44,180 bases of DNA. Source: Thermodesulfovibrionales bacterium. Lineage in GTDB: Bacteria > Nitrospirota > Thermodesulfovibrionia > Thermodesulfovibrionales > UBA9159. The number at the start of each line of letters is the position of its first letter. Within the stretch, counting starts at the first letter, position 1. Positions 5,336-26,236 of the stretch are shown here, one piece after another. The stretch is from contig JBKBUA010000005.1 in NCBI GenBank assembly GCA_046290845.1, positions 1 to 44,180 on the forward strand, written 5' to 3'. The position numbers and the translations under genes are program-made. The notes beneath the pieces are model-generated. The model was given only the letters and a program-made list of their open reading frames with translations, was not told where the DNA came from and made no database searches.

Positions 5336-6259
5336 TCATCCCCTCTTTTTCCTGATCAGGAAGATTATCCCTGCCAAGATGGCGGCAGTCACTACAAAGG
5401 CTATTACAGGATAAATATAGGTAGTCTTTTTCTCCTCTGTCTCAAGCCCTACATAATACCAGGTTGATACCACCTTTCTGCCTCCTCTATCGCCATTAGA
5501 GCCATCCCATACAGCAAAGGCAACAGGCGTTACCCCGCCTTCCTTGAAAAGTGCCTCAAATCTCTCAGAAGATGATAGGGGTCTTTTGAAGGAGACTATC
5601 CATTTATTACCATCCCTGAGCCCCTTTCCCGTAACATTCTGATTATCAGCCTTCTCCATATCGGTGGCGCTACCAAATCCCTGGGCAATTATGTTCTCTA
5701 CGGGATTTGTCCTCGGTCTTGAGACAGGATTACCGACCTCAATACCACCCGCAAAATCATCCACCATGGCATAGAGTTTTCTTTGCTCCTCAGGCTTCTG
5801 CCATGTTGCCTTCCAGAACCATATATTAACGGTATTTTCCTTATCACCCATGGCAAAATGAGGCTTTTCCTTTGCAGTCTGCGAGGGGAATTCGAGGGCA
5901 ACGGCATCAGAAAATTTATCAATGTCAACAGTTGAATCCTCTGAAGGGTCTTCCCATTCAATAAGAAAGGCTATGTCCTTTGTGTTGTGCATTGCCCTGA
6001 CCTTCAATTCCTTTATCTTTGACTCATATATCCTCGGCTTTGCCATCACCTGTGGCACGAGAGGGACATTAATGGCTGTAGCCCTTCCCCATGCCCCATC
6101 CTTTGGGTCTGATGGCAAGTCACCGCTTACTTTTTTTGCCATGATGATAAGTCCCTGAGAATAAACATAATCAGTAAGAAGCAGAACACAGAGCAGAGAG
6201 AACAGAGCACATAATTTATTAACTTGAATCTTGAATCCTGAATCTTGAATCCTTCTCAT
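5336..6259 (-). CDS. Type II DMSO-reductase-family gamma subunit (EB_dh haem-b domain; NxrC/NarI-II-like) with signal peptide and C-terminal TM anchor
   Basis: AGGAGG 5 nt upstream of ATG 6259. Signal-like N-terminus. EB_dh pattern (VRAMHNTKDIAFLIEWEDPSED...FSDAVALEFP...HFAMGDK...NIWFWKA). C-terminal helix VIAFVVTAAILAGIIFLIRKKRG. Confidence 0.85.
   Translation of the reverse strand: MRRIQDSGFKIQVNKLCALFSLLCVLLLTDYVYSQGLIIMAKKVSGDLPSDPKDGAWGRATAINVPLVPQVMAKPRIYESKIKELKVRAMHNTKDIAFLIEWEDPSEDSTVDIDKFSDAVALEFPSQTAKEKPHFAMGDKENTVNIWFWKATWQKPEEQRKLYAMVDDFAGGIEVGNPVSRPRTNPVENIIAQGFGSATDMEKADNQNVTGKGLRDGNKWIVSFKRPLSSSERFEALFKEGGVTPVAFAVWDGSNGDRGGRKVVSTWYYVGLETEEKKTTYIYPVIAFVVTAAILAGIIFLIRKKRG
6224..6251 (-). 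repeat. Tandem heptanucleotide repeat (GATTCAA/GATTCAG)x4 inside codons 3-12 of the gamma-subunit gene
   Basis: + strand reads TTGAATC TTGAATC CTGAATC TTGAATC (6224-6251) and encodes RIQDSGFKIQ. The same repeat recurs at 11537-11571. Confidence 0.9.
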
Positions 6260-7401: not shown

Positions 7402-7410
7402 AAATCCTCC

Positions 7411-10400: not shown

Positions 10401-10860
10401 CTGTCTCTGGGTCACGGGGGAATCCTGCCTTGATCCAGTCATACCATCCCTTCCTCACCATGGTTGCCTTCACACGCCTGTCACCATAAAATCTCCTCGG
10501 AAGGACCAGTGCCTTCTGACAGCATCTCGGTTCCCATCTGTGAGTAGCCTTATTACCATAGGCATCCACTGCCTCACCAAAGGCGTAGGTAGGCCCTACC
10601 CTGACAATCACACCATTTCTCACATAGGCCCTTAAAAGGCAGTTATGGGTATCATTTGGCGCGCAGGTAAAGGTAAAGATGTTGTCATACCTGAATTTGT
10701 CCCTGTAGAGTTTCTCCCAGTCCCTGTTTGGGTATTCTCCGAGGGGATTATCAATGCTGACAGGTTGAAGAAAGGCAAGCCTTGGTGAACTTGCAGCAAG
10801 CCCAGCAACACCTGCCAGTGCCACCTTAAGAAACTCTCTTCTGCTAAAACCTTTCATCAC
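7411..10860 (-). CDS. Periplasmic (TAT-exported) molybdopterin alpha subunit of a type II DMSO-reductase-family enzyme (NxrA / periplasmic NarG-like), 1149 aa
   Basis: Twin-arginine signal MMKGFSRREFLKVALAG. N-terminal Fe-S motif C-APN-D-THN-C. The size and the beta/gamma partners are typical of Nitrospira/anammox-type NXR. Confidence 0.88.
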   Translation of the reverse strand: MMKGFSRREFLKVALAGVAGLAASSPRLAFLQPVSIDNPLGEYPNRDWEKLYRDKFRYDNIFTFTCAPNDTHNCLLRAYVRNGVIVRVGPTYAFGEAVDAYGNKATHRWEPRCCQKALVLPRRFYGDRRVKATMVRKGWYDWIKAGFPRDPETGRAPDKYFQRGKDKWLKVSHEEAYELVAKAIKNIAETYTGEKGAEYLSKQGYDPASIEAMQKAGTQVLKFRGGMPLLGATRLMGFVRMANMMALLDNHIRNTGPDKAIGSRHLDNYSWHTDLPPGHPMVTGQQTVDCDLSMAEKSKLITLWGMNWISTKMPDGHWLTEARQRGSKVINITIEYQSTANKSDEVIIIRPGTDHALMLGIAHILMKEKLYDEDFVKSFTDLPLLVRTDTMQLLRASDIIKDYKPSHLKNYISVIEKGKTAPPPFKHEKQYLPENMRLEWGDFVVWDSKAQKTVAVNRDQVGKYFKSLNVEPAFTGKFNVKTVDGKDIEVRPVYDILWEYISQFTPEIVSEITWAPQEAVRNLAHEIAKNKKATFFAVGMGPNQFFNASLKDRGIFLIAALTNNIGHIGGSPGSYAGNYRVALYNGLPQYIIENPFDIELDPSKLARVKPYLKFESAHYFAHDSKPLRIGNRLFTGKTHIPTPSKLVWFANSNSLIGNCKGSYEVVVNALPKVEAVIMAEWWWTMSCEYSDVVFAVDSWAEFKHPDLCGSVTNPFNQVYPRTPIKRIFDTVGDIDTLAGVARKLTKLTGDRRFEDYWRFVYENKVDVYLERITKTSTSLKGYSFKEIHEKALKGIPSLKNLRTYPKVTGWEQTNEDKPWYTKSGRLEFYREEPEFIEHGENLPVYREPIDATFYEPNVIVSRPISLLKPIQPEDFGLRKEELSTEVRQVRNIVKHWDELKKTRHPLMKEKGYKFLFITPKYRHGAHSTPIDLDVITVWYGPFGDIYRKDKRKPWVGEAYVNMNPHDAKELGINDGDYVWIDADPEDRPFHGWQKKPADYKVARMMCRVRYYSAIPRGVLIMWHNMYQATHGSVKGHETNPDGLARNPETNYQSIFRYGGHQSCTRTWLGPTLMTDSLVRKEVFGQQIGKGFLPDVHCPVGAPREAFVKVTKAEDGAIGGKGLWRPAALGYRAGYENEAMKRYLNGGYIS

Positions 10861-11581
10861 TTCCCTCCTTTAAACACAATTCTTTATCGTTTTCATTCGG
10901 CCTGTTAAAGTAAAAGATCCTATCAATCTTGACTGAGTAAAGATCACATTCCATCTCTATCCATTCCTTCAACAATCTGCTAAGGGTGCTATAAAATGGT
11001 ATATCCTTTGTCATCTGTAGTAGAGCCTCTGTCCATCGCCCGATATGAGATGAAAGAAACTTCCTTTCTGCATTAGTGGTAACATCAAGTTTTTCCTGAT
11101 CCCCTTCCTGTAATGCCATGGCCTCTTTCAATGAGAGGATACGCATAAATTCAAGCTCGAGAGATAGATGATCAGGCCTTTCGCCATCAAAATCAAAACC
11201 AAAGGCCCTGTAAAAACCAGCTATATCTGCCATCTCTTCATAGGAATTAAAGGGATGAAGGTAGTTCCCCTCATAAAGAAGATTCTTCTCAGGAGAAACT
11301 ATAAAACAATATTCTTCTAAGAGGTCATTTATCTCCATCCTCATGGTTTCGTCTATCAGGGTATAAAGGGACTGTAGAATACCATCCTTTAATTCAGGAT
11401 GAAATCTAAGTGACTTTGTCATATGCTCAAAGAATTCCCCATTTTTTATGAAGTCAAGGAACTCAGTCCCTGGTTCTCCATAGCAATGGGATAATAGCTC
11501 ATATACTGTGCTTCTGCTAAAAGCCACTTCAGCATTTTGAATCTTGAATCTTGAATTTTGAATCCTGATTTCTTTACTCAT
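10844..11581 (-). CDS. TorD/NarJ-family molybdoenzyme maturation chaperone
   Basis: ATG 11581 overlaps the upstream stop (ATGA at 11578-11581), so the longer track start at 11638 is rejected. TorD-like motifs (...RPDHLSLELEFMRIL...). Confidence 0.8.
   Translation of the reverse strand: MSKEIRIQNSRFKIQNAEVAFSRSTVYELLSHCYGEPGTEFLDFIKNGEFFEHMTKSLRFHPELKDGILQSLYTLIDETMRMEINDLLEEYCFIVSPEKNLLYEGNYLHPFNSYEEMADIAGFYRAFGFDFDGERPDHLSLELEFMRILSLKEAMALQEGDQEKLDVTTNAERKFLSSHIGRWTEALLQMTKDIPFYSTLSRLLKEWIEMECDLYSVKIDRIFYFNRPNENDKELCLKEGSDERF
11537..11571 (-). repeat. Tandem heptanucleotide repeat (GATTCAA-type, 4-5 units) inside codons 4-15 of the chaperone gene
   Basis: + strand reads TTGAATC TTGAATC TTGAATT TTGAATC CTGATTT (11537-11571) and encodes IRIQNSRFKIQN. 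Same unit as 6224-6251. Confidence 0.9.
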
Positions 11582-12303
11582 TCCCATGTCCTCGGTTTCA
11601 CACCTGCCCTGTGATAGGCATACATTATTACCTTCCATATCTCATCCTCCTCGAGCTCATCACCCCATCCTGGCATTGCTGAACGGAACTGTTTATCATG
11701 AATACCTCCATCCCTCACCCTCCAGTAGACATAACCCAAAGGTAGCTGGGCAAGGGTACCAGGTTCCTTGAAATTCGTTGGTGATGCTGGGTATCTTATC
11801 GCACTCGCAAGAGGACCTTTTCCATCGGCATTCTCGCCATGACAGACAGCACAATTGTCATTGTATATCTGTTTTCCTTCTTCAATAAGCTTAGGGTCCC
11901 ATTTATCAGGATTCGCTGCCCATTCAGGAACCTTTAGTGTCACTACCCACTCAGGAGGAGTCACATGGGGCTGGAATAATTCAGCAGGGGGTGAATAAGT
12001 AACCCTTTCTTTTGAATAGACATTGTAGGCAACAAAGATGGGGATAATCACCAGGACTGCCTTTCTGAATATATCCCATATCGCTGGTAATTTAGACCTC
12101 AAAGAGATAAAATCAAGGAATTCCTCTATCCTCTCATCCTCAAGTGTTATATAGATAATAACACCGGCAATCACAAACATCATAAAGAAGTTCGTAAGAT
12201 TTGCTGGCAGAGGCGGTTGAATAACAAATCTCATAAGGATATAGGCACCTATAATTACTGCCAGTGCCACAATCCCTGACGGTATCTTTTTACCATTACT
12301 CAT
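11578..12303 (-). CDS. Membrane-anchored (about 3 TM) monohaem cytochrome c, module A
   Basis: Three N-terminal hydrophobic helices. CAVCHG haem motif with a distal SAMPGW Met. Ends ...KPRTWE, like its paralogue at 22397-23200. Confidence 0.85.
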   Translation of the reverse strand: MSNGKKIPSGIVALAVIIGAYILMRFVIQPPLPANLTNFFMMFVIAGVIIYITLEDERIEEFLDFISLRSKLPAIWDIFRKAVLVIIPIFVAYNVYSKERVTYSPPAELFQPHVTPPEWVVTLKVPEWAANPDKWDPKLIEEGKQIYNDNCAVCHGENADGKGPLASAIRYPASPTNFKEPGTLAQLPLGYVYWRVRDGGIHDKQFRSAMPGWGDELEEDEIWKVIMYAYHRAGVKPRTWE

Positions 12304-12353
12304 CTTATTCCTCCCTTCTATGCTACTTTTTACGGATTACGATTCTCGGTCTT

Positions 12354-12770
12354 TTATGGCGCCTTAATATCACCTATCCTCACCTTTGGTCTTCCCCCAA
12401 GACTCTGGAGATAAGCAATTACTGCTGTTATCTCAGCATCATTCAGATTCGCCGGTGGTTTATTCGCAGGCGGCATCACAGCAGTCCCGTTATAAAGAAA
12501 AGCTGCCATAGTCTCTGCATCCCTCTCAGCACCAATCCTTGAAAGGTCAGGACCGCGGAGTTTTTCACCTGTTACACTGTGACACACCCCGCAGCCTGCC
12601 TTCTTGAATATCCCCTTACCTTCCTCAGCGAGTTGGCGTGGGGTCATGTCAGGTGTAAGGATCTTCTTCTTTGGGGCTTCCCATGCTGACTGCGGGATAG
12701 AGTTACCAAACCAGGCATAAAAGCCTGTGATGACAATAGCCACTATTATAAGTTTTGTTCCTCCTTTCAT
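12354..12770 (-). CDS. Single-TM-anchored monohaem cytochrome c, module A
   Basis: N-terminal helix LIIVAIVITGFYAWF, CGVCHS motif, AVMPP distal Met. Overlaps the CydA-like gene stop by 4 nt. Confidence 0.85.
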   Translation of the reverse strand: MKGGTKLIIVAIVITGFYAWFGNSIPQSAWEAPKKKILTPDMTPRQLAEEGKGIFKKAGCGVCHSVTGEKLRGPDLSRIGAERDAETMAAFLYNGTAVMPPANKPPANLNDAEITAVIAYLQSLGGRPKVRIGDIKAP

Positions 12771-14455
12771 TCTTCACCTCCCTTTGCGCCTGTAAACCTG
12801 AAAACAAAACCTATAAGGATAAGGAAAAGAAGTGTTATCCCTGATATAACGAGTGTTGCCTGCCCCATTGGTGGAAGACCTGCATACTTTGATGTATCCT
12901 CAAGAACTCCGTATATATGCCAGTTAAGCCTTGCTGCAGCACGACCATATCCGAGGAGTGCCATTGCCCACACATTTGAGACAGCAGCAATAATCAATGC
13001 ATACTGTGACCTCGGCGGCATATCTCCCCATCTTATCTCACCCATCTTCTGCGCACCTTTAAGAAGAAGACCATCGAAGAGGTACAGGAATCCTATGGCG
13101 GGAACCATAAACAGGAATGTGTAAATAGATAGCTTAATCCTCGTTGCAGATGGAACCCTATAACTGTAATAAAGGACTATCAAATTAACAGCTATGATAA
13201 GGAGTATGACAAGCCATTCAAGGTATATGAAACCCTTCCTTCCTTCAGGAATAATCTTTCCCGCCCTCCTGTTAAGGATAAAGGTCAGGATAACAGCAAG
13301 GATCGCTATATTCACTGCTGCAATCTTTGGTGCCATTATTCCTAAGGTCCCATAGATCCAGTGTGTGCCTCCAGCAATGTCCTCAAGTGATGCAACCCAT
13401 GCCCTCGGAACTGCCCATACAGCAAAGGTTATGATCAAGCCCCAACTGAGATAGGGGACATATTTCTTGTAAGCCTCTCCCCCTGGTATCCTCCTTAATC
13501 CTATCCAGAGGTAATAACATACACTGAGCCATATAACTGCTATCACTATTGCCTGAAGAAGCCATATCTTTGAAAGAGCTCCACCCATGAAGGTTATTCC
13601 CATCTGGGCATTGAACCTGTATATCTCCATGCCAAAGTAATAGCCTGCAAAGGGAAGGAGTATCATGGTGACAACACCAATGAATGTGCCTGTATAACCC
13701 ATCCAGTCATAGTGTGCCTTTTCCTCAGGGGTCTCTGCTGAAAGGAACTTATAGGCAGCATAGGCAGCACAGATAAAACCACCGAATGTAACATTTGCTA
13801 TGAACCTGTGGATATTTATTGGTATAAAGGTAAGATTGAAGATGGCATCCTTAAGGCTTATGATCTTGCCTGCTGCATCAACACCTTGAGGGCTCAGATG
13901 GAATGAGCCCCATACATTGCCAACCATCATTACGAGGGTTCCGAGTATATTGAGAACCAGTCCGAGAGCTATATGCTGTGACTTCTTTTCTCCCTTGAGC
14001 TTATCCCAGGTTGTCCAATAGAAGTAAACAGCCGTCGTCTCTGCAATGATCAGTAGAGCAAACCAGATATAGGTGGTCTTGAAGTTATTGGTCATGTAAT
14101 TCATGAACTTCGGGAACAGGGCATAACTTGTAAGAGTAAACAATCCCCCCAGTATTGCTGTTATTGAATATGAAAGGGGAAGAAGCCTTGCAAAGTCCTT
14201 TGCAAGCCTGTCAAGCCTCTCATCCTTTTTGATATGGCCCGCAATCTCAATTATCAGGACAAAGACAGGCACAGCAAGGATGAAGGCAGCAAATAAAAGC
14301 ATGGTCTGTGCAAGAATCCAGACAACATTCCTTGCCCCTATCAGAGGGAATTCTCCATAATCAAAGCCTGCTTTCGCACCGAGATAAATTCCAATAACGG
14401 CAATGATTATGCCTGTAAAAAGTGAAAGCTGCTTCTTAATCAGTCCTCCCATCAT
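12767..14455 (-). CDS. CydA-like 'cytochrome bd-like' polytopic membrane protein (no CydB partner), module A
   Basis: Matches CydA landmarks: conserved Glu (IIAETT), His in NIHRFIANV, C-terminal GRAAARLNWHIYGVL. Extra helices sit in the middle. Met52 occupies the position of the N-terminal CydA His. Confidence 0.8.
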   Translation of the reverse strand: MMGGLIKKQLSLFTGIIIAVIGIYLGAKAGFDYGEFPLIGARNVVWILAQTMLLFAAFILAVPVFVLIIEIAGHIKKDERLDRLAKDFARLLPLSYSITAILGGLFTLTSYALFPKFMNYMTNNFKTTYIWFALLIIAETTAVYFYWTTWDKLKGEKKSQHIALGLVLNILGTLVMMVGNVWGSFHLSPQGVDAAGKIISLKDAIFNLTFIPINIHRFIANVTFGGFICAAYAAYKFLSAETPEEKAHYDWMGYTGTFIGVVTMILLPFAGYYFGMEIYRFNAQMGITFMGGALSKIWLLQAIVIAVIWLSVCYYLWIGLRRIPGGEAYKKYVPYLSWGLIITFAVWAVPRAWVASLEDIAGGTHWIYGTLGIMAPKIAAVNIAILAVILTFILNRRAGKIIPEGRKGFIYLEWLVILLIIAVNLIVLYYSYRVPSATRIKLSIYTFLFMVPAIGFLYLFDGLLLKGAQKMGEIRWGDMPPRSQYALIIAAVSNVWAMALLGYGRAAARLNWHIYGVLEDTSKYAGLPPMGQATLVISGITLLFLILIGFVFRFTGAKGGEE

Positions 14456-15704
14456 CTCCTCCTATCTCCATGATTTTTTTATAGCCATGAGAATATCCCA
14501 CCTTTTTGAGTTCGTCTATGAACCCAGAGGTAATAGTATCTATCCCTTTTTTTCTGGCCTTTGATTCAATCATCCTTACAATCATATTCCGCATAAAGGT
14601 AGGGACATTCTTGATTCTTTCCTTTGCCCTTTCATCCCACTTGAGATCAGAAGTCTCCTTCATCTCGACAGTAACCTTTCCTTTTCCTTCAGGGACATAG
14701 CCGCAGAGACTGTCCTCATCCATCATGTCACCACTGTTAACTAAGGCCCTTGCCCTGCAGCCACCACATATCTCTGTATACTCACAGATACCGCACCTCC
14801 CCTTGTAATTCCCTTCTCTCAACAACCTGAGATAAGAAGCCCCTTCCCATATATCCGAGAGAGAGGATTCTCTAATATTTCCTGCAATAACAGGCATATA
14901 GGGGCATGGAGTCACATAACCCTCGGGGTCTATCCTCATGTAAGACCTTCCAGCAAGGCATCCCCTCGTGCCGGCAGGGATTGAATATCCATCCTCATAA
15001 AGAACTCTATAAATATGAGGGGCGCACCTTGCCCTCACCATAAGCCTTTTTTCCTTGAATGTCCTGCTTGCTACATGGCGAAGGGCTGACTCATAATTAT
15101 CTGTTGATATGTCTGTCTTCATTGCCCTTCCTGTGCATATGAGGAAAAAGAAATTAATAGCCTTCACACCAAGACCAACTCCGAATTCAATAAAGCGGTC
15201 TATCTCCTGATAGTTTCTATCTGTCAGTGTCACATCGAGTTGCGTCTCTATCTCCGCCTCTCTTGCATATCTCAGGCCACTCACAGATAGTTCCCAGGCA
15301 CCATCAAAACCCCTGAATCTATCATGCTCCTCTGGATTAACAGAATCTATGCTGACCCCAACTCCCCTGAGACCAGCCTCCTTAAGGAGACTCACAACTT
15401 CCTTTGTAAGGAGTATCCCATTCGTTCCGAGGACAGGGATAAACCCTCCAGATGAAGCATATTCTATAATCTCATAGATATCCCTTCTAAGCAGCGGCTC
15501 ACCACCACTCAGAACGAGCATCAATCTATCATTGATATAGGAAAGTTCATCAATGACGTGCCTTGCCTCTTCCGTTGTAAGTTCTGAATTATTCTGCTCA
15601 AGCCTCGCAGTGGAATCGATATAACAGTGAGGACATAGGAGATTGCATCTCTTTGTCACATTCCATGAGACTATGTAGGGCTTGTAATCACTCATAACTG
15701 CCAC
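14436..15704 (-). CDS. Radical SAM / SPASM-domain protein (NirJ/AhbC-D-like) with C-terminal PCP_red-like domain
   Basis: CNLLCPHCY (CxxxCxxC). SPASM Cys cluster CGICEYTEICGGCRARA. Tail KWDERAKERIKNVPTFMRNMIVRMIESKARKKGIDTIT resembles the protochlorophyllide-reductase B C-terminal domain. Confidence 0.8.
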   Translation of the reverse strand: MAVMSDYKPYIVSWNVTKRCNLLCPHCYIDSTARLEQNNSELTTEEARHVIDELSYINDRLMLVLSGGEPLLRRDIYEIIEYASSGGFIPVLGTNGILLTKEVVSLLKEAGLRGVGVSIDSVNPEEHDRFRGFDGAWELSVSGLRYAREAEIETQLDVTLTDRNYQEIDRFIEFGVGLGVKAINFFFLICTGRAMKTDISTDNYESALRHVASRTFKEKRLMVRARCAPHIYRVLYEDGYSIPAGTRGCLAGRSYMRIDPEGYVTPCPYMPVIAGNIRESSLSDIWEGASYLRLLREGNYKGRCGICEYTEICGGCRARALVNSGDMMDEDSLCGYVPEGKGKVTVEMKETSDLKWDERAKERIKNVPTFMRNMIVRMIESKARKKGIDTITSGFIDELKKVGYSHGYKKIMEIGGDDGRTD

Positions 15705-16771
15705 CCTTGGAACCTTTCTGACCGAGCTATAAAGACGCTACAGGGAGCAAACCTCAAGACATTTTCTGTAACAGAGCCAATGTCAATCCCTTCAACATAA
15801 TGCCTCCCTGTCCTGCCGAGGAATATCAGGTCAGCCTCAACCTCAGAGGCATAATCACAGATCCTCTTGTATATGTGACCTTCCAGGACTTTTTTTACTA
15901 TGGGATAACCATCTCCAACTAACCCAAAGCCTTGTGTCTTTATCTGTTGCTCTACTGCTCTACTGCCTTGCTCCGAAAAGACCTCTCTTTCAGCCTTTTC
16001 GAGTATTAAACTACCAACCCGAGCAAGTCCCTTATCAATAAACGCATCATGGATTTTTTCCTGTTCTTTAGAGTTAAAGGAGAACCCCTCCCTGTTGATT
16101 ACAGATTCCTTGAGCCTTCCAAAGAGGTCTTTATGAAGGGCTGAATCAAAGACATAGATGAGATGGAGTTCTGCATTGAATCTCTCTGCAAAGAAACGGG
16201 CTGCCCTAAGTGAAGCTATGGCAGAGGAACTACCATCGAGACAGACAACATAGCGAGGATTGTCAAAGCTTATCCTCTCTTTAACGATAAGAAAGTTTGT
16301 ATCAACAAGCCTCAAGACCCTGAGACAGACACTGCCGATAAAGCCATTACCATTACTGTTAAAACCATGGGAACCCATTATAACGAGGTCACCTTGCTCT
16401 TCCTCTATAATCTCCTTTATTGCCCTGAAGTTCTTTCCTTCCCTCACATTCTCTCTGAAATCAACCGATGTGACGGCAAACCTCTCCCTTAGAGGCCTCA
16501 AATAGGAAAGTGATATCTTCTCCATGCCGATATTTATGAGTTTGTTATGCACATCCCTCTGCCTCTCAAGTATCTCCTCCTTCTGATACTTTTCAGGAAG
16601 GGTTGGCTCCATTATCCTGAAGGCACCTTCATGCATTGAGGCATTATAGCCATGAATTCCTACAACCTCTGAACCAAAGGCCCTGGCAATACTAATAGAA
16701 ATTTCTGTTGCAATTACTGATGGGTCACTGTTGTCATAACAAAGGATAATCTTTTTAATCGCCTCGTCCAT
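15692..16771 (-). CDS. Tandem universal stress protein (two USP domains)
   Basis: Two repeats of the USP fold pattern (...DLVIMGSHGF...GSV... and ...DLIFLGRTGRH...GSVTENVLR). Confidence 0.8.
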   Translation of the reverse strand: MDEAIKKIILCYDNSDPSVIATEISISIARAFGSEVVGIHGYNASMHEGAFRIMEPTLPEKYQKEEILERQRDVHNKLINIGMEKISLSYLRPLRERFAVTSVDFRENVREGKNFRAIKEIIEEEQGDLVIMGSHGFNSNGNGFIGSVCLRVLRLVDTNFLIVKERISFDNPRYVVCLDGSSSAIASLRAARFFAERFNAELHLIYVFDSALHKDLFGRLKESVINREGFSFNSKEQEKIHDAFIDKGLARVGSLILEKAEREVFSEQGSRAVEQQIKTQGFGLVGDGYPIVKKVLEGHIYKRICDYASEVEADLIFLGRTGRHYVEGIDIGSVTENVLRFAPCSVFIARSERFQGWQL

Positions 16772-18549: not shown

Positions 18550-19715
18550 CTCATCGCCTCCACAGGTGGAACCACAGAGGTCCTCCAGGTAGTGTATATA
18601 CTTCCCGTTGCAGTAATAACAATTGAGATCAAAAAAGTGATAATCAAAGGCATGGGTAAAAATAAAGATGGAACGGGAAAGTCTGGAAAGATGCCTGCGC
18701 CAGGGATAAAGATCTGTGCGATAAAAGGTGCATTGAGGACCTTTATCCAGAAAAAGGAGATTATAAATGTCATCGGTACACTTAAGAGTGAAAGGATCAA
18801 GCACTCAAAAAAGACCATCTCCATCACATCGACCGTCCTCCAGCCGAGGGCCTTCAATATCCCTACCTCCCTCTTCCTCTCTGTAAGACCGAGCCCTGAG
18901 GAGACTAAAAGGGCTGGTATCCCTATGGCAAAGGCAATGGTATATAGGATGAGAAAGATACCTCCTTTTGTACTGAAGCCCCTGTCGAGATAAGTCATAA
19001 CGAGATCCTTTGTCTGTATCCTGAAATAGGAATTCATCCTCTGGAGTTCCTCACTTACCTTACCAGTAAGGCCTGGTCTCACATAAATTGCCATATCTGT
19101 TATAAATCCGTCCATTTCGTAGAGGCCGATCATCTCATTTAGGTTCATCAGTATGAGATTTGATGTCCATAAACCTGAGCTTGAATCAAATATCCCTGAT
19201 ATACGAAACTCTCTCTTCACCACATAGGGCACATGGTCAACGATTCCGATTATCCTCACACCGAGACTTAGGCTGTCTCCGATATCCAGTTTCATCTCCC
19301 TGGCAAGCCTCCTGCCTATGACTACCTCACCTTCCTTAGGAAGTCCTCCTTTAACAAAAGTCACCTTCCCTGTAAGACCTTCAATAGGAATTCCGAGGAG
19401 AACGGTAAGTTTCCCACCTACATAGATCCTGCTGATTGCCCTTGGCATGACCCTTATAACACCTTCTATATTCCTTACGGGTTCCGCCATATCGATGGGA
19501 ATAACACCATTTCTTCCATACATGTCCATTGTTAAATATACATCTGCTCCGTCTTGTGCAGATATGAAGGATTCCTTTTTTACACCCTCAAGAACCGCCA
19601 TTGCTGAGAGGAATGGAAGAAGTATCGCTATGAGGCACAGGATAATCACCATGCTCCTTACTGGATAACGGGTAATATTGTGCAGTGCTGTATAGAATAG
19701 GTTAAGATGTCTCAA
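18546..19715 (-). CDS. ABC transporter permease, FtsX/MacB-like with large periplasmic domain
   Basis: One N-terminal TM helix, a ~220-aa extracytoplasmic domain, then three C-terminal TM helices (FtsX pattern, ...EVGILKALGW...). Confidence 0.8.
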   Translation of the reverse strand: MRHLNLFYTALHNITRYPVRSMVIILCLIAILLPFLSAMAVLEGVKKESFISAQDGADVYLTMDMYGRNGVIPIDMAEPVRNIEGVIRVMPRAISRIYVGGKLTVLLGIPIEGLTGKVTFVKGGLPKEGEVVIGRRLAREMKLDIGDSLSLGVRIIGIVDHVPYVVKREFRISGIFDSSSGLWTSNLILMNLNEMIGLYEMDGFITDMAIYVRPGLTGKVSEELQRMNSYFRIQTKDLVMTYLDRGFSTKGGIFLILYTIAFAIGIPALLVSSGLGLTERKREVGILKALGWRTVDVMEMVFFECLILSLLSVPMTFIISFFWIKVLNAPFIAQIFIPGAGIFPDFPVPSLFLPMPLIITFLISIVITATGSIYTTWRTSVVPPVEAMR

Positions 19716-19717
19716 TT

Positions 19718-20410
19718 TTATTTGTGATCTATCTCCCTTTTTGCTTCTTCAAGGGCAGCCTTAAAGTCTGTAACCTTACCGCCGAACCTCCTGGAAAACT
19801 TCTCAGCTTCATCAGGAGAAGAAAAAGCTATTATGCTTACAGGGCTCATCGTGCCTGGTACTGAAGAGCCTATAACATAGAACGCCTTCCCTGCATCAAG
19901 CATCCTTTCAGGTCTGAGATATTCAGCAACCTTTACTTTTTTAGGTTCCTCCCCGAGCTTATAATAAGCCATTACCGCTAAGCAGTGTATTGAACAGGTA
20001 TAGAATCTTCCTTTTGATGTCTCAAACTCATATCTTGTACCTGCCCATTTGTTCAAGTCCATCCTGCAATTATCACACCCTTTATGTTCTGCCCTTCTAT
20101 TTATGGAACTTAAATCTAACAAAGGGGATTCCTTCATATCAGCAACGGAAAATCCCCTTTCAGGAGAGTAACTATAACCTCCTGGTATCGGCCATAGAGA
20201 TGTCTCATCAACAAAATCTATCCTTGGGTCATAATTCAGGAAACCCCACTCAGGACTTATAACTCCGCCGAGACCAAAACCACCCAAGTAATTTTGAAGT
20301 TCTCTTGCCCTCGAATCCTCTTTTTCAAAGATATACATATCAAGACCTATCATGACCAATGGGGCCATGAGGAGAAAGGGAATAATGAAGATTAACCTGC
20401 TCCTCTCCAT
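19718..20410 (-). CDS. NosL-like domain protein with N-terminal TM anchor and extra N-domain
   Basis: The C-terminal half has the NosL pattern: CDNCRM...FYTCSIHC...YVIGSSVPGTMSP..IAFSSPDEAEKFSRRFGGKV. Confidence 0.65.
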   Translation of the reverse strand: MERSRLIFIIPFLLMAPLVMIGLDMYIFEKEDSRARELQNYLGGFGLGGVISPEWGFLNYDPRIDFVDETSLWPIPGGYSYSPERGFSVADMKESPLLDLSSINRRAEHKGCDNCRMDLNKWAGTRYEFETSKGRFYTCSIHCLAVMAYYKLGEEPKKVKVAEYLRPERMLDAGKAFYVIGSSVPGTMSPVSIIAFSSPDEAEKFSRRFGGKVTDFKAALEEAKREIDHK

Positions 20411-20413
20411 AAA

Positions 20414-20962
20414 TTACCGCGGTTTCAGGATATCAGGGGTTATCTCTTCAAACTTGATGATCCGTCCACCATGTTTTTTAATATAATCCTCAGCATCGCT
20501 CCTTTTTGAAAAGGGAACGAGGGCCTCACCCATTGGTCCCATTATATCTCCACCATAGACATAAAAGGCCTCCTTCGCATCAACCCAGTTTCCAACAGGA
20601 TGATCCCACTGGGCCTTCCCCATATCATTCACATATATAGCAACAATATTCCTTGGCCTGTCAGGCTGGTGATAAAAGAGTAACATATCGAGGGTGCTGC
20701 AGAATGTATCAATCTCACCATTTCGGTAATGGATCTGTGCCTTTGAGCCAGGAAAGTCCACTATGATCATGCCGCAGACTCTGCAAGAATGTTGCCTTGT
20801 AAACTCTATGGGAGGAGGTTTTTCTACCGTCTTCTTGCAGGAGGTAAGGATAAAGGAAAAAACAAGAAGAAAGATCAATAGAACACACGTATAGGACGGT
20901 ACAGATTGGCATGACCAACCATACCGTCCTATGATCTGATGCTCCTGTAACAGAAAGATCAC
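20414..20962 (-). CDS. nosL: NosL-family copper chaperone lipoprotein
   Basis: Lipobox-like FILTSC. CRVCGM motif. ...YVYGGDIMGPMGEALVPFSKRSDAEDYIKKHGGRI matches the NosL family pattern. Confidence 0.8.
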   Translation of the reverse strand: MIFLLQEHQIIGRYGWSCQSVPSYTCVLLIFLLVFSFILTSCKKTVEKPPPIEFTRQHSCRVCGMIIVDFPGSKAQIHYRNGEIDTFCSTLDMLLFYHQPDRPRNIVAIYVNDMGKAQWDHPVGNWVDAKEAFYVYGGDIMGPMGEALVPFSKRSDAEDYIKKHGGRIIKFEEITPDILKPR

Positions 20963-20967
20963 AGTTC

Positions 20968-22383
20968 CTATCTCTTCTTGCTCATCCTCTTATGAAGTAC
21001 TATCCCAGCAGCAAGGAATAGAAAGGCAACAAAGGGTGGTAATACATAGACCTTAAGCGGTGTGGAAGGCTCTAAGATCATGTAATACCAGGCAGAGACC
21101 GTTGCCTTATTACCCTCCTCCTTAAATCTACCATCATAGACCTGAACAGCGAAGGGCAAAAACTTCCCGGGCTCAAACTTTGTATCCTTGTCATCCTGAG
21201 TATTGAGCGGCCTTCTGAAAAGAACCCTGTACCGACCATCTTTGTAAGACCCCTCTGCCCTAATGTCCTGCCTCTCCTGCTGGGTAAGAGTGCCTGGTCC
21301 TGTTGCGTTGAATTCAGTGCCCTTACTATCAGCCATAGAAAATGACCAGAGGTAAACAGCAGCCTTTTTATCTCCCATAAAGAAATAGGGCTTATCCCCT
21401 ATCTTTAAGGGATACTGAATCCTTACCAAGTCAGGTGGTAGGCCATCGTCACCCTTATTTGGCTTTTTGTCTGTCCATTCAAGTAATATCCCAACCTCGG
21501 CATTGGTATAGAGCCCTCTCACCCTTACATTCGTGATTGTAGCCGTAAAGTTCCTCGGCTCAAACATTATCTGGCCTGCCATTGGGAGATCGAGATAATC
21601 AACCTTATCCCAGGTCTTGTCCTCAACAGAAGGGACAGTAGTAGCCTTCTTAACCATGAGAGAGACGCCGAGCTTTCTTTGAAGTTGTCTTGATTTTATA
21701 AAACAGGCAAGGGCCCATCTCTCATCATCAGAAAGCGTATCCTGATAGGATGTCATGGGTGTGCCTTTATTACCTGTCGTTATAGTAAGATAGATATCCT
21801 CAAGGCTGGAACCCTTCCTGAATTCCCAGGGATGGGTATGATCAGCAGGAAGTATGGGATTCCCCCAGTCATCCTTAAAGTTTTCCTGCCAGGATTTTTC
21901 CCCATCACCCCTTCCCTCCTTGCCATGGCATTCCCAGCACTTTGCTGTCTTCTCTTCGATCTCCTTGCCCTTCTTTATCATCTCATCAGAACAGGATGGA
22001 ACCTTTGTTATCTTCACAGGTTCAGGCTTTGATGTAAAGACATCAGGGGCAAATTTCTTCAGGTACTCAATGAGGGATTTCGCCTCTTCATCACTAAACC
22101 TCCTCCATGGAGGCATAGATGTCCCTGGATTACCATCCCTTATCATCCTCTTGAGGTCCTCATCTGAAGGGGGGTCTCCAGTTGGTGTTGATGTAAACTT
22201 GTATGTTCCAACTGTAAAGTCCCGTGGCTTTGGAAAGGTGAAATCCTTTGCGTATCCATCGCCCTTTCCCTCATAGCCATGGCACTGAGCACACCAGGCC
22301 TCATAAAGGACCTTTCCCTTTTCCTCTCCATAGGCATTAAGTGATACTGACAATAATAAAATCAATATGAATAACAATCTCAT
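20968..22383 (-). CDS. Fusion protein: dihaem cytochrome c (N) + EB_dh haem-b domain (NxrC-like) + C-terminal TM anchor
   Basis: AGGAGG 6 nt before ATG 22383. Signal peptide MRLLFILILLLSVSLNAYG. Haem motifs CAQCHG and CWECHG. EB_dh pattern follows (...VGILLEWTDKKPN...PYFFMGDKKAAVYLWSF...ATVSAWYYM...). Tail helix FVAFLFLAAGIVLHKR. Confidence 0.85.
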   Translation of the reverse strand: MRLLFILILLLSVSLNAYGEEKGKVLYEAWCAQCHGYEGKGDGYAKDFTFPKPRDFTVGTYKFTSTPTGDPPSDEDLKRMIRDGNPGTSMPPWRRFSDEEAKSLIEYLKKFAPDVFTSKPEPVKITKVPSCSDEMIKKGKEIEEKTAKCWECHGKEGRGDGEKSWQENFKDDWGNPILPADHTHPWEFRKGSSLEDIYLTITTGNKGTPMTSYQDTLSDDERWALACFIKSRQLQRKLGVSLMVKKATTVPSVEDKTWDKVDYLDLPMAGQIMFEPRNFTATITNVRVRGLYTNAEVGILLEWTDKKPNKGDDGLPPDLVRIQYPLKIGDKPYFFMGDKKAAVYLWSFSMADSKGTEFNATGPGTLTQQERQDIRAEGSYKDGRYRVLFRRPLNTQDDKDTKFEPGKFLPFAVQVYDGRFKEEGNKATVSAWYYMILEPSTPLKVYVLPPFVAFLFLAAGIVLHKRMSKKR

Positions 22384-22396
22384 CTTAACCTCCTGC

Positions 22397-23200
22397 TTAC
22401 CATGTTCTCGGTTTATTCCCCGTTGCCTCATAGATGAAGAGGATCACCTTCCATATCTCCTCTTCGGTAAGGATATCCTCAAAGGAAGGCATAGAGGAAT
22501 CCGAGGGATTTGATCCTGGCGGGAGACCTCTCCATCCCTTTGCAATGCGCCAGAATACAAATGACTCTGGAAGCTGTGCAATGGTATCTGTACCCCTGAA
22601 AGGTAATGGCAAGGGGTTAAAGGCCTGGGCAAAATGGCCTTTACCATCAAGGTCATCGCCATGACAGTAAAAACAGTTCTGGTAATAGACTTTCTTGCCC
22701 TCTTCAAGATACTTCTTGAGATTAGCCGTATCCTTCCTTAATGGGTTCTCAAGTCCGAGTATCTTTATAGGTTTGCCCCTAAATTCAATCTCAGCAGGAG
22801 GCTCAGGATGGACTATCCTTGCCGAGACGGGTGGTTCGTACCTGGGTTTTACCTTAAAATATGTAATCAGACCTGCAGCAACAGGGATAGCTACAAAGAC
22901 GATAACAATCCTCTGTATCTTCTTTTCCTCGTCAGCGAGTACAGATTTAACAGGTCTTAAAAAGGCCTGGAACGTCTCTTCCTCTATGGAGAAGAATATA
23001 AGAAAGGCAAATATAGCCATTGCCATATACATCACTATGACCTGACCGGGTAGGGGTGGCATGAAAAGGCCCAAGCTCTTAAGAAACCCGTAGATAGCTA
23101 TGAGTATCCCGATAAAGTTAAAAAAGGGAGACTTCCTGATAGCTGCAAGGACTGATATAGCAATGCCGATTAGAGTGACCAAAGGGTATATCCATACCAT
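22397..23200 (-). CDS. Membrane-anchored (about 3-4 TM) monohaem cytochrome c, module B
   Basis: Paralogue of 11578-12303: CFYCHG, SSMPSF, ends ...KPRTW. Confidence 0.85.
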   Translation of the reverse strand: MVWIYPLVTLIGIAISVLAAIRKSPFFNFIGILIAIYGFLKSLGLFMPPLPGQVIVMYMAMAIFAFLIFFSIEEETFQAFLRPVKSVLADEEKKIQRIVIVFVAIPVAAGLITYFKVKPRYEPPVSARIVHPEPPAEIEFRGKPIKILGLENPLRKDTANLKKYLEEGKKVYYQNCFYCHGDDLDGKGHFAQAFNPLPLPFRGTDTIAQLPESFVFWRIAKGWRGLPPGSNPSDSSMPSFEDILTEEEIWKVILFIYEATGNKPRTW

Positions 23201-23202
23201 AT

Positions 23203-23724
23203 CTATTTACCTCCCTTCTGAGCCTTATCAATCTGGGCCTTAAGGGCCTCAACCGATGCAGGATAACTCACAGTGACCTTACCACCCTTACTCTGGAGAA
23301 AGGCCGTTAATGCTATAAGCTCACCCTCATTAAGAGATGTTGGTGGCTTATGAACAGGTGGCATAATGTTATCAAATCCTTTTTCTACATAGGCACCAGG
23401 ATTAACAAGGGCCTCAAAGGCATGATCTTCTGGCTTCATATTCCTTTTCTTTGCCTCCTCTTCCATAAGCTTTCCGATAGTATCAATTGAAGGTGCCCTC
23501 ATGCCTGGTTCTGCCTTCATGGGATGGCAGACCATGCACTGCCCCTTTCCGAAGAGTATCTGCTCACCTATCTGGATCAACTCCTCAGTAGTAACCCCTT
23601 CCTGGATCTTCAGTTCCTTGGGTGGATGTGATTCTGATTGAGGAAGAAAATACAGCCCAATATAGGCAAAAAAGAGATTTATCCCTAAAACAACGAGACC
23701 TAATTTGATAGCTCCCGATCTCAT
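23203..23724 (-). CDS. Single-TM-anchored monohaem cytochrome c, module B
   Basis: Paralogue of 12354-12770: CMVCHP, NIMPP. 4-nt overlap with the CydA-like gene. Confidence 0.85.
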   Translation of the reverse strand: MRSGAIKLGLVVLGINLFFAYIGLYFLPQSESHPPKELKIQEGVTTEELIQIGEQILFGKGQCMVCHPMKAEPGMRAPSIDTIGKLMEEEAKKRNMKPEDHAFEALVNPGAYVEKGFDNIMPPVHKPPTSLNEGELIALTAFLQSKGGKVTVSYPASVEALKAQIDKAQKGGK

Positions 23725-25469
23725 CCTTCCTGCCTCCTTTCCTCAGCTACCTTTTCGAGTTTCATTATGCTCCAGAAGACAAAGGCAATAAGTGCAAAGA
23801 ATAGTAAGGTGATTATAGTAACTATTACTGCTGCTATACCATGGGCAGGGAGATAGGCATCAGGGCTCGTATCCTTAAGTATTCCATAGACATGCCAGTA
23901 TTGTCTGCCACCTGACCTCATATAACCCATCATTCCCATAAGCCATGTAAAAGTCACTGTAATCCCGATAAGGGCATACTGGGATCTTTCGGGCATCTTT
24001 CCCCAACGGGGTTCTCCTATCACCTTCGCTCCTTTATACATCTTGTTATCCAGGATGAAAAGGCCGATTATTGAAAGGAAGAATACACCGAATTGAATAG
24101 GAGAAAGCACCTTCACCCTCACCGCAGCAGGAACCATGTAACTGTAAACACCGATGATGAGAACGATAATGGTGGAAAATATTATTATACCTGCCCTTAT
24201 CGCCCTTCCAGTCTTTACCCAGGGAACAACAGGGTCCTTGTTGCTCATCCTGAAGATGGCATAACTCAGGAATGTGGCAAGATAAGAGATTATCACAGCC
24301 GTATTCTTTGCAGCCATGACACCGAGGTTGCCCAAGGCAGGGTGATACGCCCCGATCCTCCTTGCCTCCTCAAGGCTCAAGGCAACACTGTGGGGAGTTA
24401 GCCACACAAGGTAACCAAAGAGGACGGTTATAAAGAGGAACTTCACATACTTGAAGTACCTCTCACCGCCCGGCATCTTATTCAGGGATATCCATAGGTA
24501 ATAGTTGATAAAGAAGAGTATTGCTCCAATGAGGATAGCCTGCATGACCCAGAGCCATGCAAAGAATCCACCCATAAGCTGTATACCCATCTGTTCATTG
24601 AAGGCATAGATCTCTATACCGAGGAGATAGCCTATACCAGGAAGGATAAGAGAAAAACCTATTGCTATCATTGCTGATGTATAACCCATCCAGTCATAAT
24701 AGGCCTTTTCTTCTTCGTTTCTGGCGGTTATAAACCTGTAGGCAGCATAGGCAGCAGCAATTCCAGCGCCAAAAACGACATTTGCAACGAGCCTGTGAAG
24801 TGAAAGCGGTATCCACATGTAGGTCTTTATTGCTTGCCATCTATTGAGGAGTTCACCCTCAGGACTCACACCTCCAGGGGTGGTCATATACCCGACCCAT
24901 GCACTCGTTATTAGCAGTAGAATCGCACCCATCACATTCAGCAAGACCCCGATACCCACATGGGTTCCCTTTTTCTCCTTCATCCTCTGCCAGGAATAGA
25001 AGTAGTAGTAACAAACAAAGACCTCACCATACATGAAGAGTATGTAGAACCACCATGTTGGTCCGAGGATCTTCAGTAAATGGGCAATAAATTTGGGATA
25101 TAGCAGAGGTAGGCTCACCATAAGGATAGCGCCCATTATGGCAGTTAGTGTATAGGCTAATGTGAAGAGTTTTGTAAAGTCATAGGCGATCCTGTCGAGC
25201 CTCTCATCCTGCCTTTTCCATCCCAAAAATTCCATTGCAACCGCAAAGATAGGAACGCCCAGAACAAAGGCAGCAAAATTAAGATGTATCTGGGCGATTA
25301 TCCATACCCACACCCTGCTTCCAAGTAGAGGGAAAAATCTATACCCCTCAGGGCTTGGTGAGGGTAAAATACTCTTTAAGAAAAAAAGACCAGCAAATCC
25401 TGCACCCAGTATCAGGGTTAATTTAATAAAACCCTTAACAATCCCCTTTTTTACACTTCCTTCCGCCAC
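23721..25469 (-). CDS. CydA-like 'cytochrome bd-like' polytopic membrane protein (no CydB partner), module B
   Basis: Alignable end to end with 12767-14455 (shared DERLDR, HR[FL][IV]ANV, AAYAAY, EEKA[HY]YDWMGYT, RSQYALI, WH[IV]YG[VI]L). Retains the N-terminal His (AQIHLNF). Confidence 0.8.
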   Translation of the reverse strand: MAEGSVKKGIVKGFIKLTLILGAGFAGLFFLKSILPSPSPEGYRFFPLLGSRVWVWIIAQIHLNFAAFVLGVPIFAVAMEFLGWKRQDERLDRIAYDFTKLFTLAYTLTAIMGAILMVSLPLLYPKFIAHLLKILGPTWWFYILFMYGEVFVCYYYFYSWQRMKEKKGTHVGIGVLLNVMGAILLLITSAWVGYMTTPGGVSPEGELLNRWQAIKTYMWIPLSLHRLVANVVFGAGIAAAYAAYRFITARNEEEKAYYDWMGYTSAMIAIGFSLILPGIGYLLGIEIYAFNEQMGIQLMGGFFAWLWVMQAILIGAILFFINYYLWISLNKMPGGERYFKYVKFLFITVLFGYLVWLTPHSVALSLEEARRIGAYHPALGNLGVMAAKNTAVIISYLATFLSYAIFRMSNKDPVVPWVKTGRAIRAGIIIFSTIIVLIIGVYSYMVPAAVRVKVLSPIQFGVFFLSIIGLFILDNKMYKGAKVIGEPRWGKMPERSQYALIGITVTFTWLMGMMGYMRSGGRQYWHVYGILKDTSPDAYLPAHGIAAVIVTIITLLFFALIAFVFWSIMKLEKVAEERRQEG

Positions 25470-25519
25470 TTGTTACCTCCAACCACGGGTTATTTCAGGG
25501 CCGCAGAGCGGCCCTTTTC

Positions 25520-26236
25520 TTATTTCTTGCTCATGGTCACATTCAGGTCTGAGGCCTTCCCTGCCGAGACCTCCACATCCTTTTTTTCTTCCTTCAGGCC
25601 TTCATGCCAGAACCTTACAGTATATTTACCAGGAGGAAGGTCTTTAATCTCAAAGTTTCCATTATCATCTGTAATTGCTACATAGGGATGTTCCGAGACA
25701 TAGACATAGGCCCTCATCCATGCATGGGCATCACATTTAACATCGTGGAGACCTGTGGTCTTCACAGGCTTTGTTATAACCTGATCCTTCTTTGGAAGGG
25801 CAAGGTTATAAACCGTCCTCCTCTTGTCACCAAGCATAACCGCCAGGCTCGTATTGTGAAGGATCGGATCACTGTTCTTGAGGATATAATTTGATCCCTT
25901 GTAGGCAATGCTTACGAGGGGCTCAAAGTAGCATTTCTGGTTATCAATCGTTGTATCCTTCTTAGGCGCGGCCTTACCCTTTTGAACATTCTCTACTATC
26001 ACAAGCACATTCTTGATACCCATATCGCCTGATATAAGATACATATTAGAAGGCTGGCTACTACCACAGAATTCCACATCCTTCTCGATCTTGAGAACTG
26101 GAGATTCATATTTTCCCGCAACCTTCACCTTACCTTTAATACTGCCACCATTCTTGACATCAACAACCTCATAGGCAAATGAGGCAGTAACGATGGCCAG
26201 CAATAGAAACATCACGATTACTGTTATCCTTTTCAT
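25520..26236 (-). CDS. Exported cupredoxin-like domain + carboxypeptidase-regulatory-like (Ig-like) domain protein with a complete type-1 copper-like ligand pattern
   Basis: Signal peptide. DPILHNT ... KCDAHAWM gives His...Cys-x2-His-x2-Met, the amicyanin-type spacing. C-terminal DDNGNFEIKDLPPGKYTVRFWHEG. Confidence 0.6.
   Translation of the reverse strand: MKRITVIVMFLLLAIVTASFAYEVVDVKNGGSIKGKVKVAGKYESPVLKIEKDVEFCGSSQPSNMYLISGDMGIKNVLVIVENVQKGKAAPKKDTTIDNQKCYFEPLVSIAYKGSNYILKNSDPILHNTSLAVMLGDKRRTVYNLALPKKDQVITKPVKTTGLHDVKCDAHAWMRAYVYVSEHPYVAITDDNGNFEIKDLPPGKYTVRFWHEGLKEEKKDVEVSAGKASDLNVTMSKK

Follow-up and report, generated by a model that had tools for sequence, protein, structure and literature searches.

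Architecture of the locus and of the fusion protein

We analysed a 44,180-nucleotide stretch of DNA from a Thermodesulfovibrionales bacterium of the phylum Nitrospirota (contig JBKBUA010000005.1 of assembly GCA_046290845.1, positions 1 to 44,180; hereafter the window), which belongs to a metagenome-assembled genome (MAG) from a hot spring (87% complete, 2.27 Mb). The sequencing runs listed as carrying window positions 19700-25500 are all of hot-spring DNA, with no RNA run among them. The gene under study (hereafter the target) lies on the reverse strand at 20968-22383, downstream of genes for a cytochrome bd-like membrane protein and two cytochromes c, and encodes a dihaem cytochrome c fused to an EB_dh domain (Table 1). 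A previous sequence-only reading regarded the product as an orphan whose EB_dh domain had been recruited here into a three-haem wire leading to the nitrous oxide (N2O) reductase NosZ. We find that the target is a new member of the described, biochemically uncharacterised alt_NxrC family and that the module-linked homologues of this family have lost the canonical Met/Lys ligand pair of haem b.

We placed the start codon at 22383 rather than at an upstream ATG (22431) because an AGGAGG motif lies 5 nt before it and because of the stop codon of the preceding gene (TAA at 22399-22397, leaving 13 nt before the start codon of the target). Pfam recognised two cytochrome c domains (PF13442 and PF00034, E 6e-22) and EB_dh (PF09459, 59.6 bits, above the cut-off of 33.3), while the NCBIfam gamma-subunit model TIGR03477 matched residues 244-435 with 88 bits, under its cut-off of 169.85. 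By hydropathy, the protein has a signal-like segment at residues 1-19 ending in AYG and a single C-terminal transmembrane (TM) helix at 445-463 followed by KRMSKKR; 118 of 121 orthologues likewise have a hydrophobic segment at the C-terminus. An AlphaFold2 model (55 homologues; predicted local distance difference score 93, predicted template-modelling score 0.88) comprises an N-terminal helix (2-19), a helical dihaem domain, a beta-sandwich (241-437) and a terminal helix (443-470). Pfam, hydropathy and the model therefore agree with the layout given by the sequence-only reading, namely a signal peptide, the haem-c motifs CAQCHG and CWECHG, EB_dh and one C-terminal TM helix, and the domain search that it had proposed recovered both PF09459 and cytochrome c.

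Sequence searches of the PDB matched residues 21-231 to the Kustc0457 dihaem cytochrome of Kuenenia (6h5l_B, E 9e-54) and the C-terminal part to NxrC (7b04_C, E 1e-8). Foldseek returned the same relationships from the model: 6h5l_B with a target-normalised template-modelling score of 0.90 and a root-mean-square deviation of 1.7 A, 7b04_C with a score of 0.63 (E 1e-16) and EbdC (2ivf_C) with a score of 0.82 (E 2e-15), with CBM9 and DOMON-type domains ranking after these three. The N-terminal 215 residues resemble Kustc0457 (6H5L chain B) with 43% identity in the structural alignment, including both CxxCH motifs and both distal Met residues, although the target is fused to EB_dh and a TM helix and has no partner nearby resembling hydroxylamine oxidoreductase (HAO), in contrast to the HAO-like Kustc0457/Kustc0458 complex of Kuenenia. 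NxrC and EbdC are haem-b gamma subunits of enzymes of the type II dimethyl sulfoxide (DMSO) reductase family. With NxrC (7B04 chain C) and EbdC (2IVF chain C) the target shares the beta-sandwich, the Met position and the framework residues W303, D318, G337, G418, S430 and W432; it differs from them in having Ala for the Lys ligand, a fused dihaem c domain and no co-encoded alpha and beta subunits. We rejected as a homologue Kustd1711, the dihaem cytochrome of the Kuenenia nxr cluster (7ZS0 and others), which has an Hfq-like 'nose' domain and no EB_dh and was absent from the PDB matches; kustd1709 and kustd1699 are the candidates for the Kuenenia counterpart of the target.

Within its own genome, the only relatives of the target are a free dihaem cytochrome at 35911-36756 (43% identity over residues 16-229, E 7e-44) and a gamma subunit at 5336-6259 (27% identity over the EB_dh part, E 1e-27), both in the window; the paralogy with the free dihaem cytochrome noted earlier is thus borne out. 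Both CxxCH motifs are invariant across 241 homologues (121 + 120 sequences), as are the distal Met90 and Met210 of the dihaem domain. Mean column conservation among orthologues was 0.72 for EB_dh and 0.73-0.77 for the haem-c domains, implying that the EB_dh domain is still under selection.

Table 1. Features of the target and of related genes in the window.
Feature	Position	Strand	Basis or remark
Whole target gene, 471 residues + stop	20968..22383	-	alt_NxrC-type subunit: signal peptide, dihaem cytochrome c, EB_dh fold, C-terminal TM
Shine-Dalgarno AGGAGG	22389..22394	-	5 nt before ATG at 22383
Sec-type signal peptide, residues 1-19, MRLLFILILLLSVSLNAYG	22327..22383	-	hydropathy; AlphaFold2 helix 2-19
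Dihaem cytochrome c domain, residues 20-235, kustc0457-like	21679..22326	-	PDB 6h5l_B, Foldseek
CxxCH haem-c motif 1, CAQCH, residues 31-35	22279-22293	-	sequence
CxxCH haem-c motif 2, CWECH, residues 149-153	21925-21939	-	sequence
EB_dh / DOMON-like beta-sandwich, residues 236-441	21061..21678	-	PF09459, Foldseek
Met336, haem-b Met-ligand position	21376..21378	-	alignments
Ala427, column of haem-b ligand Lys	21103..21105	-	alignments
C-terminal TM helix, about residues 443-465, then basic tail KRMSKKR	20989..21057	-	AlphaFold2, hydropathy
Cytochrome bd-like (OR-N type) membrane protein, gene 1 of unit	23721..25469	-	PF01654, synteny
Single-TM monohaem cytochrome c, gene 2 of unit	23203..23724	-	domain search, hydropathy, synteny
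Multi-TM cytochrome c, gene 3 of unit	22397..23200	-	domain search, hydropathy, synteny
True gamma subunit, EB_dh with Met + Lys ligands, own C-terminal TM; comparator	5336..6259	-	domain search, alignment, hydropathy
Free dihaem cytochrome c, paralogue of the N-terminal half of the target, adjoins nosZ	35911..36756	-	domain search, alignment

A member of the alt_NxrC family in a conserved bd-like module

A word-indexed search returned 955 homologues, the best 120 of which all have the same three-domain architecture (455-507 residues), and an exhaustive search returned 663 representatives at E <=1e-30. The architecture itself has been published. Mundinger 2019 described 'alt_nxrC_2' of Nitrospira moscoviensis (NITMOv2_3640) as '1 SP, 1 TMH, diheme cyt. 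c', clustered with two cytochromes c and a bd-like oxidase in an arrangement conserved in Nitrospina and anammox bacteria (PMC6606698), and Luecker 2013 reported alt_NxrC copies in Nitrospina gracilis with haem-c sites and a DMSO-reductase-like haem-b domain (PMC3578206). The architectural and contextual traits published for this family recur in the target (Sec signal, two haem-c motifs, EB_dh, one C-terminal TM helix and a bd-like cluster), and its gene, like those of Nitrospira and Nitrospina, directly follows a bd-like oxidase and two c-type cytochromes; the reading as an orphan recruited at this locus is not supported. Proteins of the same layout in family f29, the largest family of the phylum and presumably Nitrospiraceae, are 30-32% identical to the target over residues 21-471 and share its module-linked clade (support 99). 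Compared with the f29 genomes, the target is shorter (471 versus 596-632 residues), its module is nested in a nos cluster, and its ligand columns hold M/A rather than F/M or W/M; NITMOv2_3640 itself is likened by its description.

The bd-like protein belongs with the OR-N family of the cytochrome bd superfamily defined by Murali, Gennis and Hemp 2021 (bioRxiv 10.1101/2021.01.16.426971), being likewise CydA-like with many TM segments, no CydB beside it and an operon shared with cytochromes c; aligned to Geobacillus CydA (5doq_A), it retains a His and a Glu at the N-terminal haem/proton site. OR-N has been proposed as a cytochrome c:O2 reductase (bioRxiv 10.1101/2021.01.16.426971, PMC10839748), a role called putative in later genome papers, and its bd-like proteins are reported to lack a quinol-binding site or Q-loop (PMC3578206; bioRxiv 10.1101/2021.01.16.426971). 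In the main text of the OR-N classification, which classifies the CydA-like subunit, we found no mention of NxrC, ethylbenzene dehydrogenase (EBDH) or DOMON (bioRxiv 10.1101/2021.01.16.426971).

We collected related loci with an 11-sequence alignment and scored gene context by tblastn with the proteins of this window. The order bd-like, cytochrome c, TM-cytochrome c, homologue, all on the same strand, held at every one of 20 loci sampled from the phylum, and the unit precedes the target orthologue at all tier-1 loci whose contig reaches far enough. Across all homologue loci it was found in 79 of 105, drawn from Nitrospirota, Gemmatimonadota, Acidobacteriota, Myxococcota, Calditrichota, Bacteroidota, Nitrospinota and Alphaproteobacteria, which upholds the functional link to the preceding gene triad that had been suggested from the window alone.

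Several further genes accompany the module. A tandem-Usp protein, a radical-SAM/SPASM enzyme with a PCP_red-like tail and a cupredoxin-like/CarboxypepD_reg protein (window positions 14436-16771 and 25520-26236) also occur at loci L037-L041, L054-L061, L069, L072-L074 and L076-L081, in several phyla and even where no nos or nxr genes are nearby; these companions may function together with the unit, in cofactor maturation or as an electron carrier. Six contigs (L048, L052, L082, L086, L053 and L138) carry two or three tandem four-gene units or extra partial fusion genes, and the ligand pairs differ between tandem copies (e.g., M/R and M/H in L048).

Loss of the canonical haem-b ligand pair

Haem b of Kuenenia NxrC is ligated by Met155 and Lys305, a scheme also found in EBDH (PMC8387239). 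Alignment of the window gamma subunit to 7b04_C and 2ivf_C fixed the ligand motifs as 'AMGD' and 'GGRKVVS'. Met336 of the target aligns with Met155 of NxrC and Met108 of EbdC, and Ala427 sits in the column of K305 (NxrC) and K201 (EbdC). A gapless BLASTP alignment with the window gamma subunit likewise placed FMGD (M336) on the ligand Met and 'GNKATVS' on 'GGRKVVS'. The F-x-MGDK pattern that the sequence-only reading had seen in both proteins therefore holds at the Met position but does not extend to the Lys ligand. A phmmer local alignment offered K426 ('EEGNKAT') as the haem-b Lys; we rejected this residue, which lies one column early by both the gapless and a 350-sequence alignment and pairs with the Arg preceding the ligand Lys in true gamma subunits.

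Ligand columns were counted in the 350-sequence alignment, with orthologues taken as the 121 sequences at >=52% identity. Free gamma subunits have M in 108/109 and K in 108/109. Among orthologues, the Met column holds M 84, L 24, R 5 and I 5, and the Lys column G 83, A 34, C 4 and K 0, making the proposed three-haem wire doubtful. The column before it alternates between K (85) and R (34), an alternation not expected of an iron ligand and one that disfavours K426. No His, Met, Lys or Cys of the EB_dh part is conserved at >=95% in the orthologue alignment. The sequence-only reading had itself named unconserved haem-b ligands as evidence that would count against it, and this is what we observe for Lys, though not for Met336 in the target. 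A canonical six-coordinate Met/Lys haem b in the target is accordingly unlikely, judging from these alignments.

The difference extends over the whole family. The M/K pair was found in 0 of 79 module-linked homologues and in 25 of 26 fusions unlinked to the bd-like module, the latter being Nitrospina types and Planctomycetota/Brocadiia genes beside NxrAB. Module-linked homologues instead carried M/G (19), F/R (14), M/R (9), H/H (7), Q/Q (3), F/M (3), M/M (2) and other pairs, with M/G in the clade of the target and F/R in Vicinamibacterales, a pattern that spans many phyla in counts whose related genomes are not independent samples. In a maximum-likelihood tree of the EB_dh domain (106 rows, 216 columns, free gamma subunits as outgroup), all non-M/K fusions fell on one side of a branch with a support of 99 in the Shimodaira-Hasegawa-like approximate likelihood ratio test and the M/K fusions on another (91), and the target fell in a 24-row Nitrospirota clade (support 100). 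Of the replacement pairs, H/H, M/M and M/H are able to ligate haem, and F/R, Q/Q and M/G are unable to, which suggests that the two positions still face each other across the pocket with lineage-specific content.

Alphaproteobacterial module-linked homologues have His in both ligand columns (L085, L087, L091, L093 and L095), in open frames of 757-848 residues with three CxxCH motifs, and a nested Rhodobacteraceae subclade has Gln/Gln (L088, L092 and L107) or Gln/Asn (L096), a coupled change at both ligand positions. Four Planctomycetota/Brocadiia loci (L094, L098, L105 and L119) encode Met/Lys dihaem-EB_dh fusions that adjoin NxrA-NxrB-NarJ and have no bd-like gene in the surrounding 8 kb. It is these fusions, and not those of the module-linked clade, that resemble genuine cytochrome-fused gamma subunits.

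Association with nos and nitrite oxidoreductase genes

We assessed how the module associates with NosZ. Nos genes flank the unit only in Thermodesulfovibrionia-type loci, with the module lying between nosY and nosL, so that the fusion recurs beside nos genes in other genomes within this type of locus only. The block between nosY and nosL comprises genes for a cupredoxin-like, a transglutaminase-like, a TlpA-like and a second cupredoxin-like protein, the bd-like protein, two cytochromes c and the target. Such nesting was seen at L035, L042-L044, L046, L047, L059, L062 and L064, and on the nosY side only at L045 and L063. The last of these (JALSHV010000014.1, labelled as an Aquificaceae MAG) carries a full Thermodesulfovibrionia-type nosFY/accessory/bd-like/alt_NxrC block at 45-73% protein identity, reflecting either mis-binning or recent transfer.

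Co-occurrence was scored in 17 genomes with a close orthologue (53-61% identity). NosZ was present in eight, in seven of them on the contig of the orthologue, and no NosZ match was found in the other nine, three of which are 98, 98 and 94% complete. Conversely, this NosZ type was found in 18 genomes of the 401-genome sample, and five of these (96-100% complete) had no bd-like match at E 1e-10; matches to the target in these five covered the dihaem part only (G178, G214, G187 and G350) or residues 11-269 (G318). Other phyla carry the same bd-like module without any nos gene inside 8 kb. This NosZ can thus do without the module, the module is not confined to organisms that have NosZ, and the claim of a new electron route to NosZ is not supported.

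The free dihaem cytochrome is more closely tied to nosZ, being the neighbour that went with NosZ in every case checked. A kustc0457-like match lies directly beside NosZ in ten NosZ-bearing relatives, from coordinates read by eye (e.g., G264:C23:14947-15648, G328:C116:18307-19017, G187:C5:279-1007 and G350:C1:39987-40679), and a similar free gene lies directly beside NxrA in three f7 genomes (G086:C11, G134:C44 and G253:C70). It looks like a general periplasmic electron carrier of the lineage and is a likelier candidate than the target for the direct NosZ donor. The genome also encodes four COX1-family, two Rieske and four NrfD-type proteins, which offer other possible electron routes.

The sequence-only reading had placed the target without an alpha/beta partner. 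This is true of the adjacent genes, but the window encodes a nitrite oxidoreductase (NXR)-like alpha/beta pair at 6268-10860, which together with its gamma subunit forms a set 10 kb from the target. NxrA-like matches were confined to 6 of the 17 orthologue-bearing genomes; the target is thus an obligate companion of neither NosZ nor NXR. The window gamma subunit has its own C-terminal TM helix (residues 284-302) and basic tail, much like those of the target, and the NXR-like enzyme here would be tail-anchored without need of an 'alternative' anchor.

The window holds a second bd-like module. In module A, genes for a bd-like protein (12767-14455) and two cytochromes c (12354-12770 and 11578-12303) are followed by NarJ-NxrA-NxrB-NxrC, and module B (20968-25469) has the fusion where module A (10844-14455) has these four genes. 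The two arrangements resemble an exchange of electron-input units on one membrane triad, and an EB_dh domain followed by a C-terminal helix may thus be what both use for attachment to the triad.

Interpretation and alternatives

We consider it reasonably likely (a probability of about 0.6) that the target is the fourth, periplasm-facing subunit of an OR-N-type bd-like membrane complex, in which the EB_dh domain has a docking or structural role rather than holding a third wire haem. The bd-like protein, the one-TM cytochrome c and the multi-TM cytochrome c would form the rest of the complex. The target would be a Sec-exported protein that its C-terminal helix anchors in the membrane. Its two His/Met c haems would most likely pass electrons between the haems of the membrane module and soluble carriers of the periplasm, for which the kustc0457-like dihaem paralogue and the co-conserved cupredoxin-like protein are candidates. 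The EB_dh sandwich, without canonical Met/Lys, would more probably serve for docking, for structure or as a non-canonical haem site than carry a third wire haem. As to the direction of electron flow, the reported absence of a quinol-binding Q-loop favours an electron-accepting, oxidase-type role over quinol-to-NosZ supply, and the module would be a general respiratory unit that is co-located with nos genes in this lineage and is not NosZ-specific.

Several observations weigh against this interpretation. Complex formation is predicted from gene order, and a context scored by tblastn with window proteins is blind to unrelated neighbours. The nosY-nosL nesting in at least ten Thermodesulfovibrionia loci suggests a link to N2O reduction more specific than expected of a general module. 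The target and 69% of orthologues still have the Met of position 336, and a Met-ligated, five-coordinate or trans-ligated haem b may yet be present. It is also conceivable from the model that a one-residue register shift would let K426 ligate, the ligand Lys being in a loop (residues 421-427).

The reading in which the target is a membrane-tethered wire of two c haems and one b haem, carrying electrons from the bd-like triad to NosZ as a dedicated new N2O route, appears improbable to us. The four-gene unit does lie inside the nos cluster, with nosDFY and accessory genes on one side and nosL on the other, both in the window and at the ten or more related loci; the free dihaem paralogue adjoining nosZ is a plausible electron-exchange partner, and one of the two haem-b ligands, Met336, is retained. 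However, the Lys ligand is missing from the target and from every orthologue, more than half of the orthologue-bearing genomes (three of them nearly complete) have no NosZ match, and five nearly complete NosZ-bearing relatives have no bd-like match. The module is moreover found in phyla without neighbouring nos genes, the reported lack of a quinol site in OR-N proteins makes the triad a poor source of quinol electrons, and the Rieske and NrfD-type proteins provide other possible routes. We rate somewhat lower still the published proposal of an alternative gamma subunit (PMC3578206, PMC6606698), in which EB_dh would dock on the NXR-like beta subunit, anchor the enzyme and pass electrons to the c haems. 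The fold is that of the beta-docking subunit in NXR and EBDH (7b04_C, 2ivf_C), an NXR-like alpha/beta pair is encoded in the same window, and module A has NarJ-NxrABC in the place of the target; nevertheless, most orthologue genomes have no NxrA-like match, the NXR-like enzyme of the window has its own Met/Lys gamma subunit with a TM anchor, an FS4-to-haem b relay would break without the Lys ligand, and the fusions that do stand beside NxrAB belong to the other, Met/Lys-keeping clade.

Because complex formation is argued from gene order, the target might also be a free-standing tethered cytochrome whose place beside the bd-like genes is an accident of the operon. This is very improbable, given that at least eight phyla share the order, with protein identities of 30-60%, and that the intergenic gap is 13 nt.

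Implications

The bd-like (OR-N) module, a proposed terminal oxidase of nitrite oxidisers, is reportedly one of their most strongly transcribed gene sets. Our results indicate that the alt_NxrC subunit is not confined to nitrite oxidisers and anammox bacteria and accompanies the module in at least eight phyla, and that the absence of Met/Lys from all 79 homologues of the module-linked clade weakens the label 'alternative NXR gamma subunit'. For annotation, they correct a tempting over-reading of the gene as a new NosZ electron route. The loss of Met/Lys predicts a ratio of haem b to haem c different from 1:2. More tentatively, and in our view with odds well short of even, the Met/Lys haem-b site was lost at the base of the module-linked alt_NxrC clade and then re-tuned lineage by lineage, either to bis-His, bis-Met or Met/His or to the non-ligating Phe/Arg, Gln/Gln and Met/Gly (the target being among the latter), and the module serves N2O respiration in Thermodesulfovibrionia. 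If so, the domain would no longer be an NXR-type gamma subunit, but an adaptor or a site of variable potential in a widespread respiratory complex, and this complex would have been built into the nos operon, supplying electrons to or scavenging O2 around NosZ. The module nested in the nos operon of hot-spring Thermodesulfovibrionia is a natural case for asking what the role of the complex is.

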